Shown here piece by piece: positions 53,101 through 55,939 of a stretch of 64,000 nucleotides of DNA. Origin of the DNA: Gemmatimonadota bacterium. GTDB taxonomy: Bacteria > Gemmatimonadota > Gemmatimonadetes > Palauibacterales > KS3-K002. Numbering within the stretch: the stretch's first letter is position 1; each line of letters opens with the position of its first letter. The stretch lies in the NCBI GenBank assembly GCA_039586795.1, contig JBDHJS010000003.1, positions 146,669-210,668 on the forward strand, written 5' to 3'. The notes below the pieces were generated by a model, which was not told the origin of the DNA, made no database searches, and was given only the letters and a program-made list of their open reading frames with translations. Both the position numbers and the translations under genes were made by a program.

Positions 53101-54060
53101 CTACCCGTGCTCGATCTCGGCCGCCTCGACTGGCGGCCTGGGTCGGCTCAAGATCGTCAACACGGCCGCCGTTATGACGGCGGTCGCGGCCAACGTTCGC
53201 GTATTCAACGCCTCGTCGGCCAGCGCCCAGCCAAGGAACACCGCAACCACAGGATTGACATAGGCGTGAGTGACGACGCGAGATGGCGTCGTAACCCGCA
53301 GCAGCCAGAGGTAAGCTCCCAAAGCGATGATCGAACCAAAGACGGCTAAGTAGGCGACGGACGCGACCGATAGGAACGAAACCTGACTATCGCCCAAGCT
53401 CCCCCACTCGCCTACGACGCTCCCCAACAAGAAGAGCACCACCCCACCCGCAAACATCTCCATCCCCGTCGCCAATACCGGTGACGATGGCAAATGCGAG
53501 CCTCGCGAATAGAGCGATCCAAACGACCAGGTGACCGTGCCCACAAGTATGATGCTAACGCCAACCGCATCGATCCTCCCGGCACCCGCCAACTGCTCCG
53601 GTCCGATCAGTAAGGCGACGCCTACGAAACCCAGGGCGATCCCCATCCACACCCGCAGGCTCGGACGCTCCCCGCGGAAGAACAACCAGTCCACCAGCAC
53701 CATCGACAGTGGACCGACGGCAACGATCAACGCCGCCGCACCTGAAGGAATGCGCTGCTCCGCCCACGAGACGCCGCCGACACCAAACACAAGCATCAGC
53801 ACGCCAACAAGCGTCGCGGCCCACCAGTGCTTTCGTGTCGGCCGCTCCGCGCCGCGCATGCGCGCCCAAGCATACATGAGGCCGCCAGCGATCACGAATC
53901 GGACCGCGGTCATCAAGAATGGAGGAAGAGTCTCGACCGCGAAGCGGATAGCAAGGTAGGTGGAGCCCCAAATCAGATAGATCGCGGCGAAGGCCGCGAT
54001 CAATCCCAGCCTGTGCCGCTGCGCGTCATGAGGCGTCGACGATTCAAATGTGGAACTCAC
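53101..54060 (-). CDS. EamA/DMT family transporter (YedA-like)
   Basis: IYLIWGSTYLAIR, RFVIAGG and HAYVNPVVAVFLG. Confidence 0.92.
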   Translation of the reverse strand: MSSTFESSTPHDAQRHRLGLIAAFAAIYLIWGSTYLAIRFAVETLPPFLMTAVRFVIAGGLMYAWARMRGAERPTRKHWWAATLVGVLMLVFGVGGVSWAEQRIPSGAAALIVAVGPLSMVLVDWLFFRGERPSLRVWMGIALGFVGVALLIGPEQLAGAGRIDAVGVSIILVGTVTWSFGSLYSRGSHLPSSPVLATGMEMFAGGVVLFLLGSVVGEWGSLGDSQVSFLSVASVAYLAVFGSIIALGAYLWLLRVTTPSRVVTHAYVNPVVAVFLGWALADEALNTRTLAATAVITAAVLTILSRPRPPVEAAEIEHG

Positions 54061-54178
54061 GGCGCAGAAATCTCCTCCCCTTCTACCGCGTGCCGCCCGC
54101 TGTCACCATATTGGCACAGCCATGAGCAACTCGCTGATACAAACCTCAATACAGAGAGCGCAAGAGGAGGCGTCGCAA

Positions 54179-55087
54179 GTGCCTGATGTGCTCAACCGCA
54201 TCTGGGAGTCGGTCACCCAGGGCGGCGTCCTCGAGAAGCTCGCCATCCTCTTCATCATCGCCATCGCGCTCTGGGCTCTGTCACGCCTGGTCCGCCGTGG
54301 GATAGACTCACACATCGAAGATGTCAACCAGCGTCATCAGCTACGCAAGGTTGTCACCTATGTGTTCTGGATCGCGCTCGTTGCCACAGGCGTCATCCTC
54401 TTTGCCGAGCGACTGGCTCTCGCCGACATCGGCACAATCGTCGGCCTCATCGCCGCCGCCGTCACCATCGCCCTCGCCGATGTCGTGCGCAGTCTCGCCG
54501 GGTGGATCTACGTAAACTCACGCCGCGGTGTCGAAATCGGGAGCCGCGTCGTGGTTGATGGCATCACAGGTGACGTCATCGACATCGGACTTCTGAAGAC
54601 GACACTGCTGGAAGTCGGTGAGCCGCTGGTCCACGCCATGCAGTCCACCGGACGGATCGTCACGGTGCCCAACAGCGCTTTCCTGAACAAGAACGTGATC
54701 TCGTCGGCCACCGTGAACCCGCTGGTCTGGCACGAAATTCGAATCCTCGTCACCTTCGAGAGCGACTGGAAGAAAGCTCGCGACATCATGAAGGATGTGG
54801 CGATGAAGCTCTACGACGAGATCATCCCCGACCTCCGTGAGGGCTTCAGGAGCCTGGAGCGCGAATATGCTTTCCGCCTCGGCAGCACGGCACCGTACAT
54901 CTACACCGAGATCGCCGACTCAGGCGTGCTTCTGACGTTGCGAAACCTGTGCCCGGTCCGCCGGCGCCGCTCCACCACCGACCGCATATCCGAAGAGATT
55001 CTCGACCGCTTCAACGAAGATGAGACGATCGAGTTCGCCTACCCGACGTATCGGATCTTCAAGCTCGGCGAGGAGGGCGGGGAGTAG
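54179..55087 (+). CDS. MscS-family mechanosensitive channel
   Basis: Three TM helices, GDVIDIGLLKTTLLE, TGRIVTVPNS and IEFAYPT. GAGGAGG lies before GTG 54179, with an alternative ATG at 54122. Confidence 0.88.
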   Translation: MPDVLNRIWESVTQGGVLEKLAILFIIAIALWALSRLVRRGIDSHIEDVNQRHQLRKVVTYVFWIALVATGVILFAERLALADIGTIVGLIAAAVTIALADVVRSLAGWIYVNSRRGVEIGSRVVVDGITGDVIDIGLLKTTLLEVGEPLVHAMQSTGRIVTVPNSAFLNKNVISSATVNPLVWHEIRILVTFESDWKKARDIMKDVAMKLYDEIIPDLREGFRSLEREYAFRLGSTAPYIYTEIADSGVLLTLRNLCPVRRRRSTTDRISEEILDRFNEDETIEFAYPTYRIFKLGEEGGE

Positions 55088-55115
55088 GGGGCAAGGGGTA
55101 AGGGGTAGGGGGTAG
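55082..55115. repeat. tandem GGGGTA(A/G) heptamer repeat
   Basis: gagtagggggcaaggggtaaggggtagggggtag. Confidence 0.65.
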
Positions 55116-55128
55116 TCAGTTTCCACCC

Positions 55129-55171
55129 AAAGAACCGGCCGCAGATGGAAACCTCCCCACCCGCGGCCGGT
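55129..55171 (-). terminator. intrinsic terminator of the minus-strand small RNA/ORF
   Basis: ACCGGCCGC...GCGGCCGGT stem followed by TCTTT. Confidence 0.75.
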
Positions 55172-55241
55172 CGTGTCTGGCTCAACCGGCTCGACGCCTC
55201 GTGGCGTCGCCGGTAACAGCCCGACAGAGGCTGTAGCTAGC

Positions 55242-55301
55242 CTACACCACCTCGAGGCAGCCGATTGCCCGTGCCGGTTGGCCAGATAATTCAACGGACA
55301 T
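55242..55301 (-). CDS. putative 19-aa small peptide MSVELSGQPARAIGCLEVV
   Basis: AAAGGAGGT Shine-Dalgarno with its GGAGG core 6 nt before ATG 55301, and TAG at 55244-55242. Confidence 0.45.
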   Translation of the reverse strand: MSVELSGQPARAIGCLEVV

Positions 55302-55462
55302 GGACCACCTCCTTTCGTTCGGGTTAACGCCAAGGGCACGAAGTCACTGTGACGCCTAGCGTTACACGCCTGGCGTCCCCACAACCTACGGCCTGAACAC
55401 GCCTTGGGGCAAGCTTTTTGATCCACCTTCGTCCCGCCCTGCCCCCGTCTGCCTGAGCAGCC

Positions 55463-55492
55463 TTGACGGCGCTTGGCCCCGTCGGGTATTGT
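55463..55492 (+). promoter_or_regulatory. putative sigma70 promoter of gcvH
   Basis: TTGACG-N18-TATTGT. Confidence 0.5.
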
Positions 55493-55543: not shown

Positions 55544-55939
55544 ATGGCTGAAGCGAAAGTCCCCGATAATCTGCTCTATACAGAAGAGCACGAGTGGGTA
55601 GAGAAGCTGGGCGACGACGAGATCTCCGTCGGTATCACCGACTTCGCCCAGGGAGAGCTAAGCGACATCGTCTTCGTTGAACTCCCAGACGTCGGGAGCT
55701 CGTACACCAAGATGGAGCCGTTCGGAGCCATCGAGGCGGTCAAGGCGGTGTCTGACCTTTACACGCCGGTTGGTGGCGAGGTGACTGCGGTGAACGACGG
55801 CCTGGCTGACGAGCCCGGCGTCGTGAATCGTGACCCTTACGGCGAGGGCTGGATGGTCAAGCTCCGAGTCAACGATCCATCTGAGCTGGACGCCCTGCTC
55901 TCAGCAGACGCATACAAGGCCTTGATCGCCGACAGCTAG
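55544..55939 (+). CDS. gcvH: glycine cleavage system H protein
   Basis: YTEEHEW, VGITDFAQGELSDIVFVELP, lipoyl-Lys motif IEAVKAVSD and DPYGEGW. Confidence 0.97.
   Translation: MAEAKVPDNLLYTEEHEWVEKLGDDEISVGITDFAQGELSDIVFVELPDVGSSYTKMEPFGAIEAVKAVSDLYTPVGGEVTAVNDGLADEPGVVNRDPYGEGWMVKLRVNDPSELDALLSADAYKALIADS

Follow-up and report, generated by a model that had tools for sequence, protein, structure and literature searches.

We found that the minus strand of the window (the whole stretch of DNA that was analysed, 64,000 nucleotides from a Gemmatimonadota bacterium) contains a genuine gene in its own right, whose product is a small folded RNA, and that this RNA very probably belongs to the rre-type class. 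As judged from sequence, what is new here is a Gemmatimonadota variant of the rreB/rreR small mRNAs of Alphaproteobacteria, where such genes have already been published. In our preferred reading of the whole, to which we give a probability of roughly 0.55, the gene would specify a free-standing rre-type mini-mRNA that engages the 30S subunit at the RNA level and is gated by a two-state fold.

The transcription unit and its complement to the 16S tail

The unit and its neighbours comprise the following elements.

55407..55412 (-): -35 box TTGCCC; CTTG invariant in 19/19 family copies
55383..55388 (-): -10 box TAGGTT; the family form TAG[C/G/T]TT is present in 19/19 family copies
55129..55376 (-): predicted RNA, about 248 nt, single copy
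55351..55377 (-): 5' hairpin, variable in sequence
55301..55316 (-): extended Shine-Dalgarno sequence (SD), complementary to the 16S tail over 16 contiguous pairs, one of them G-U
55242..55301 (-): 19-codon ORF, MSVELSGQPARAIGCLEVV, ATG at 55301, TAG at 55242
55129..55172 (-): terminator hairpin and short U tail; the hairpin itself is 55172-55133
54050..55087 (+): gene for an MscS-family channel (PF00924), convergent neighbour, outside the unit
55544..55939 (+): gcvH (PF01597), first gene of the glycine cleavage operon, divergent neighbour, outside the unit

The initial annotation had proposed a promoter, a 5' hairpin, an anti-16S site, a 19-codon ORF and a terminator on this strand, and all of them were recovered where it had placed them. 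Upstream of all 19 family copies, CTTG of the -35 box and TAG-TT of the -10 box are invariant columns; in the source copy, TTGCCC and TAGGTT are separated by a spacer of 18 nt, and transcription is predicted to start at about 55376. A generic promoter/terminator scan listed neither the promoter nor the terminator of the unit. A leader hairpin is predicted in 19/19 family copies (-5.8 to -21.4 kcal/mol, values without a shuffle control), and the terminator hairpin shows compensatory changes in 8 of its pairs. Folding of the minus-strand unit gave z = -4.69, which was equalled by 0/200 shuffles, and the duplex of the extended SD with the 16S tail (-30.1 kcal/mol) is the strongest among 31,425 GGAGG/AGGAG/GAGGT sites of the source genome (G000), the runner-up reaching -28.5. 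Both results agree with the earlier proposal of a structured, stand-alone RNA that would pair with the 3' tail of 16S rRNA; the tiny frame for translation that was proposed with it is supported as well.

The 14-mer of the extended SD occurs once in the source genome. This genome has no assembled 16S 3' end, and the tail was taken from relatives: the 3' end is present in 15/41 of them (one in the family, 14 in the order's other family), and all 15 are identical at the matched standard 18-mer, with no mismatch. The idea that the 16S tail of the lineage had been altered to match the G was ruled out by these 15/15 standard tails. Within the family, the 15-mer AAAGGAGGTGGTCCA and TGTC are invariant in 19/19 copies and the 16S complementarity spans 16-18 nt; in the order it spans 16-19 nt, so that the UUUC end and the 3' strand of helix 45 are both covered. 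Elsewhere in the phylum, most families have a complement of only about 14 nt, and the helix-45 part (CCAG) is missing in many members. The long complement of the order, extending into helix 45 and the UUUC end, would suit a guide or checkpoint for maturation of the 16S 3' end, with a pairing that extends over the tail and the helix-45 base. However, the loss of CCAG in many phylum members, the retention of a start codon and frame, and the lack of linkage to rRNA or processing genes in the family leave this explanation with hardly any weight.

Five sequencing runs contain part of the region, four of which are on record as RNA. Each of the 4/4 RNA runs (4 studies, seawater/sediment) holds one contig that is 97-100% alike and lies within 55152-55361, and the same four runs hold zero contigs on the flanks; the comparison covered the RNA runs only, and missing RNA cover over mscS/gcvH was not counted as silence. 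Since the RNA contigs have neither strand nor ends and were found using this query, they are a hint of expression, not proof.

The mscS-family gene adjoins the RNA convergently in 17/18 family loci, and gcvH adjoins it in 18/18. Outside the family, gcvH was found beside the RNA in 3/6 and 3/20 of the 3-kb loci of other families and in 0/29 of those in family f3. Because gcvH is divergent and mscS convergent, no gene lies downstream on the same strand, which weighs against a cis-acting element (leader, attenuator or riboswitch) and against an sRNA that acts in trans and is linked to mscS or glycine cleavage. Such a function could make use of the mutually exclusive folds described below, the leader-like ORF and the terminator, and the position beside gcvH is stable in the family and in some other families; nevertheless, the terminator belongs to neither of the alternative folds, the neighbourhood changes across the phylum, and Rfam returned no riboswitch match for the locus and the relatives scanned, so that we hold this explanation to be very improbable. 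On the plus strand, a G-quadruplex-like stretch with at least five G4-5 runs (55075-55115) lies over and after the mscS stop codon, before the RNA's terminator, and in L002 and L005 there are comparable C-rich tracts beyond the terminator. A sigma-70-like promoter directed toward gcvH (55463-55492, plus strand) stands back to back with the promoter of the RNA, 50 nt apart.

Alternative pairings within the RNA

On the strength of covariation and folding models, the RNA probably has two mutually exclusive, conserved folds, one of which (OFF) would hide the SD and the other (ON) would expose it. The elements concerned are as follows.

55334..55338 (-): UGCCC 'key', located 20-25 nt before the SD and able to pair with GGGCA (pseudoknot with P1)
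55273..55286 (-): 5' strand of helix P1, codons 6-10
55266..55270 (-): GGGCA; in OFF it locks the start codon (UGUCY), in ON it is the partner of the upstream GCCC
55254..55262 (-): internal anti-SD (16S-tail mimic), family form GACUGCCUC, phylum form GAUCGCC
55203..55213 (-): alternative partner of the 3' strand, GACGCC/GGCGTC hairpin (OFF)
55176..55200 (-): 3' strand of P2 (55200-55191) and of P1 (55190-55176)

The structure set consisted of 88 long-form members (the 104 with GGGC, dereplicated), which were aligned by sequence only and had been selected for SD and TGTC. As the set is defined by this motif, the invariance of SD and TGTC in it is partly circular, and GGGC is invariant in 88/88 by selection of that set.

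The ON fold is carried by covariation. The top pair by mutual information and several of the next ones fall in P1, which joins codons 6-10 with the strand before the terminator. P1 is 90.7% paired in the 88 sequences, 11/11 of its pairs have changed on both sides, and 58 parsimony changes between Watson-Crick types were counted on a tree built without the paired columns; P2, which extends P1 after an 8-nt loop, contributes 9 parsimony changes. The ON fold as a whole is 90.5% paired with 182 double changes (0/500 shuffles), compared with 30-42% for slid controls.

The OFF fold depends on the internal anti-SD, which can pair with the SD (OFF) or with the 3' strand (ON, helix P2). The SD:anti-SD helix is 91.7% paired in the phylum and in 153/153 cells in the family, and 7 core pairs are kept in 98-100% of the 88 sequences, with one compensated pair: where the family's SD has changed from A to G, the mimic has changed from U to C, as one independent event. 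The pairing energy of the anti-SD is -14.7 versus -12.6 in shuffles, a modest gain, and no shuffle was as good in 24/135. The upstream GCCC:GGGCA pairing is present in 97% of the 88 sequences with zero compensatory changes; among 136 members, in which kin are not independent, both GCCC and GGGC occur in 104, neither in 22 and one only in 10. Since they show one and zero compensatory events, the OFF helix and the GCCC:GGGC pairing may be conserved for other reasons, such as contact with protein or rRNA. The GACGCC/GGCGTC hairpin is 100% paired in the family core and 75% in the phylum set.

At the median, the two folds cost 2.15 and 2.6 kcal/mol, and ON is the cheaper one in 38/74. Truncation folding, which treats equilibrium rather than kinetics and ignores pseudoknots, gave P(OFF) > 0.5 in 62/88 nascent versus 18/88 full-length molecules and P(P1) > 0.5 in 57/78; the source copy swings between the folds near full length. 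The SD unpaired probabilities from single-sequence ensembles were mostly 0.2-0.6 and thus uninformative. With consensus folding, the same two folds were obtained in an 11-codon Gemmatimonadota class (14 sequences) and in the rreB class (15), while the 14-codon class was weak and the CC2171 (27) and rreR (40) classes gave no usable fold.

The helices drawn in the initial annotation are all formally possible, but several are not the conserved ones. In particular, the outer stem CGTGCCC-TTGGC/GCCAA-GGCACG, which was thought to display the SD, is weakly conserved (paired to 78-87% among 17 sequences of the family and to 60% among 88 of the phylum), and it was rejected as a conserved fold when its double-change pairs proved no better than shuffles (439/500). 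The conserved partner of the SD is instead the internal anti-SD, which hides it; the outer stem may form briefly before the anti-SD is transcribed. The other helices are paired in the family to 100% (GACGCC/GGCGTC), 90% (AACG/CGTT), 67% (ACAGCC/GGCTGT) and 62% (GTGT/ACAC).

Reading frame, kinship and distribution

The start codon is ATG in the source genome and its one genus relative found and GTG in the 17 other family copies, and the interconversion is a one-base deletion by which a start codon is kept. Family ORFs are 19-22 codons long and frameshifted in 3/19 copies. For the wider comparison, 165 loci were reduced to 136 distinct pattern-fitting members by dropping duplicates, non-matching loci and 16S-free chance matches such as L221, L261 and L273; about 90 of the 131 phylum matches entered sequence analysis, picked for spread over families. 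The 136 members start with TTG (86), GTG (48) or ATG (2), and CTG, allowed by the pattern, was found in 0. Using a window chosen after the data had been seen, the first stop falls at codon 10-27 in 133/133 in frame versus 48/133 and 18/133 in the other frames; for the 115 genome-scan members, the numbers are 115 versus 39 and 24. GGGC stands in one frame in 100/104 members.

These kept starts, frames and stops, set against a codon profile that is not protein-like, suggest that initiation and frame are selected and that the peptide is weakly constrained at most. For example, the variable sites at codon positions 1/2/3 number 2/10/8 in 15 frame-intact family ORFs versus 70/50/125 in gcvH, and these ORFs contain 14 non-synonymous versus 8 synonymous variants (114 versus 42 possible). 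Most long-form members contain the motif [RW]A[SN][DG]R, the codons of which are fixed at third positions and overlap GGGC and the anti-SD. Frameshifted and truncated versions of the ORF persist. The peptides are polar and have no hydrophobic stretch, whereas type I toxins are recognised by a small hydrophobic conserved peptide. When the peptide and the RNA structure are compared for conservation, P1 covaries and the peptide lacks protein-like variation; the encoded peptide is probably incidental, and the type I toxin-like or peptide-driven role that had been considered for the locus loses ground because of the non-hydrophobic product, the non-protein-like variation and the tolerated frameshifts.

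A small functional peptide gene, the synthesis of which is kept low or conditional by structure, would follow the logic of type I toxin and small-protein mRNAs with metastable hairpins such as hok and aapA. In these mRNAs, metastable hairpins hide the SD co-transcriptionally and refold once the transcript is complete; at full length the RNA is inert, and it encodes a hydrophobic toxin that is counteracted by an antisense RNA. Our RNA resembles them in the predicted hiding of the SD while nascent, the long-range 5'-3' pairing and the refolding at completion. In contrast to hok and aapA, it is predicted to be open at full length and encodes a polar peptide under little constraint, and no antitoxin was seen: a consensus promoter scan of the opposite strand inside the unit found no site, although the scan misses the unit's own promoter too. 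A peptide gene would explain the conserved start codon, frame and stop position and the recurring [RW]A[SN][DG]R; according to PMC5711450, each of the RreB and RreR peptides is conserved in its own clade. It would not explain the codon-position profile, the third-position fixation of motif codons that coincide with GGGC and the anti-SD, the surviving frameshifted and truncated versions, the lack of a hydrophobic stretch, or the absence of relationship among the peptides of the classes (11, 14, 18 and 19-25 aa), and we therefore think it unlikely.

The rre-type mini-mRNA that we prefer has a published precedent. In Hahn et al. (RNA Biol 14:1353, PMC5711450), rreB is described as an orphan mRNA of 165 nt that has a 14-codon frame and is complementary to the 16S tail over 17 nt ending in a GTG start; it is found on the 30S subunit in gradients, is weakly translated, and is destabilised by its start codon (half-life 10 versus 37 min). 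Its 20-fold overexpression left growth unaffected, and ribosomes far outnumber rreB. Analogues including rreR (18 codons) are given there for four alphaproteobacterial orders only, rreB being found in Bradyrhizobiaceae and rreR in Rhodobacterales, with GTG as the start codon and ATG in Azospirillum; the RreB and RreR peptides are unrelated between clades. In the sources available, rre genes have been known since 2016 and are reported from Alphaproteobacteria only.

Compared with rreB and rreR as they are described there, our RNA has several common features. It is likewise an orphan small transcript with its own predicted promoter and terminator; the complementarity to the 16S tail is 16-17 nt (here 16, with one G-U) and runs into the start codon of a short ORF (here ATG; GTG in 17/19 of the family); the SD is predicted, here computationally, to be paired with a downstream strand; and the peptides are unrelated between classes, with a context conserved within the family only. 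It differs from rreB in its length (about 250 versus 165 nt), an additional 5' hairpin and GCCC/GGGC pairing, its phylum, its start codon (ATG here, GTG in the order and TTG in most of the phylum) and the one G-U in the duplex. In addition, PMC5711450, in its available portion, describes one fold for rre RNAs, whereas an open competing fold is proposed here. With the alphaproteobacterial rre genes, a 21-nt 5' motif and the topology are shared and the bodies are not alignable, and a motif dictated by 16S rRNA could arise independently.

The initial annotation recognised no named family, which has to be revised in view of the fit to the rreB/rreR definition published in PMC5711450, as far as it is accessible. 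In Rfam, no family reaches its gathering cut-off at the locus; the best match of the source copy is CC2171 (RF01867), with 22.2 bits against a gathering score of 75. The CC2171 model places the locus as its best match in 6/7 genomes of family f1 that hold the RNA (G000 included), and it is the best Rfam match for most relatives scanned, always below 75 bits: 0/13 genomes were above the cut-off, phylum relatives reached at most 39.8, and rreB- and rreR-type loci also remained below it with 37-49 bits. Like our RNA, the CC2171 consensus opens with the same extended SD, start codon and UC and has a long-range helix between the ORF and the 3' end, followed by a terminator; unlike it, CC2171 has a body sequence that is not alignable and is listed by Rfam as non-coding. 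CC2171 is a Caulobacter sRNA that was validated by Northern blotting in Methylorubrum, according to the available part of a preprint (bioRxiv 10.1101/2022.01.24.477521). Membership in Ms_IGR-5 (RF02471) was rejected, with nothing at the locus at E <= 1 and 0/5 genomes over the cut-off of 45; the locus of relative G007 scores 18.1 bits with this model. Our literature search, in which subscription journals were sparsely covered, returned nothing on such RNAs in Gemmatimonadota, on follow-up of rreB or on a second fold.

The precedent of rreB also bears on the possibility that the RNA is a decoy which sequesters or stores 30S subunits, as a translation brake or in a hibernation-like manner, and which would be on at full length. 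The strongest 16S-tail complement in the genome, the presence of rreB on the 30S in gradients (PMC5711450, accessible text) and the recovery of the RNA, and not of its neighbours, from metatranscriptomes are all compatible with it. However, in the same text, 20-fold overexpression of rreB had no effect on growth and ribosomes are far more numerous; moreover, most other families of the phylum have a complement of just about 14 nt, and a decoy would not need a conserved start and stop. Thus, of the earlier suggestion of a sequestering RNA, the pairing with the 16S tail stands and pure sequestration is weakened by the unslowed growth, and we judge the decoy to be quite improbable.

As for distribution, a DNA search found a single syntenic copy in 18/24 genomes of the family. 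A BLAST-type DNA search found it in 0/16 genomes of the order's other family, the copies of which were recovered by pattern and model searches. The pattern AGGAGGTGRTCC-N(1,2)-TGTC matched 127/401 genomes of the phylum (131 matches, nearly always once per genome, in a tally that takes in the unpublished G094 and G130), and the reversed pattern gave 7 matches as a control; the 17 genomes of families f10-f12 had none. The extended anti-16S motif is kept in 19/19 family copies, and the pattern built on it is present in these 127/401 phylum genomes. The covariance model (88 members) gave exactly one match in 44/121 genomes, G130 included, and 18 of these had been missed by the pattern; in the latter, the complementarity is 11-18 nt and the start-codon lock is broken in 2. 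A phylum scan with the bare 14-mer (235/401) was confounded by 16S genes at 22/29 inspected loci, and its counts were not used. Loci L184 and L242, from unpublished genomes, were excluded from every sequence analysis. A second class of mini-gene with the extended SD was seen in one Gemmatimonadota genus (L194-L196, L250-L252); it has 25 codons and no GGGC, and its stop codon adjoins the terminator.

Beyond the phylum, an all-species scan with the GTG form yielded at least 120 stretches, and nearly all of the 80 titled ones come from Alphaproteobacteria or unclassified Proteobacteria; by length and taxon, the scan's 14- and 18-codon classes fit rreB/rreR. In the phylum of the Planctomycetaceae record L065, 11/151 genomes matched the pattern with 12 matches, 7/12 being 10-19-codon units with a terminator and 5/12 looking like chance. 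In this phylum, two more rre-like classes were observed (L345-L351), with 10-11 and 18-19 codons, each with a terminator. Viral stretches (18 + 14) yielded alphaproteobacterial-type units and ordinary phage genes sharing the ribosome-binding site (RBS), and the long Gemmatimonadota form was absent among those read. The phage genes, of 38-82 codons, use the 14-nt extended SD, a GTG/TTG start and Ser as the second codon (viral contigs L022, L024, L029-L032, L034, L036, L037, L355-L359, L362-L367). In the viral contigs L354 and L361, the extended SD and TTG open a 13-codon frame, behind which lies a long structured region that may contain an internal anti-SD (GTCACCTC); this unit may be a phage-borne rre-like RNA. 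In Streptomyces (L120:351-369), the same RBS precedes a 51-codon Cys/Ser-rich ORF and then a similar second ORF, a pair that we take to resemble RiPP precursor genes rather than an rre RNA. A record titled Cytophagales (L064:351-387) has an rreR-type start that is identical to Sulfitobacter copies and lies at a contig end, and this contig is probably misbinned.

Proposed mode of action

Under the two-state reading that we prefer, the RNA would be transcribed as a unit of its own, between the promoter and the terminator described above, a reading to which the RNA contigs lend slight support. While nascent, it would be OFF, with the anti-SD and the GGGCA in the ORF shutting the SD and the start codon, as conservation and folding suggest. 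The finished 3' end would then make P1 and P2 and capture the anti-SD, by which the SD would be freed (ON), and the upstream GCCC could capture GGGC; P1 is backed by covariation, and the order of these events is proposed. A 30S subunit would dock through 12-18 pairs and initiate weakly, as is the case for rreB in the available part of PMC5711450. A translating ribosome would have to unwind P1, the GGGC pairing and P2, after which the 3' strand could fold locally and the RNA would return to OFF or be degraded. Degradation after translation would be in line with the destabilisation of rreB by its start codon.

As to purpose, we tentatively suggest, at somewhat less than even odds, that the state and lifetime of the RNA report on free, translation-competent ribosomes. 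A broader and more doubtful idea is that rre-type RNAs form a cross-phylum class (Alphaproteobacteria, Gemmatimonadota and some Planctomycetota) of ribosome-operated, one-shot switches with the RNA state as the signal, which would be made in the shut state and opened by their own 3' end, and which a single round of translation would close again or destroy. If this is true, each molecule would register a single meeting with a free 30S subunit whose tail is accessible, and such a stand-alone RNA would be a regulatory device that has the ribosome itself as its ligand. The two-fold model singles out particular base pairs, and mutants in these should be locked in the open or the shut state. The spread of a single-copy gene in a distant phylum, with the frame kept and the peptide drifting, speaks for a task at the ribosome that is carried out at the RNA level and would be common to many bacteria.
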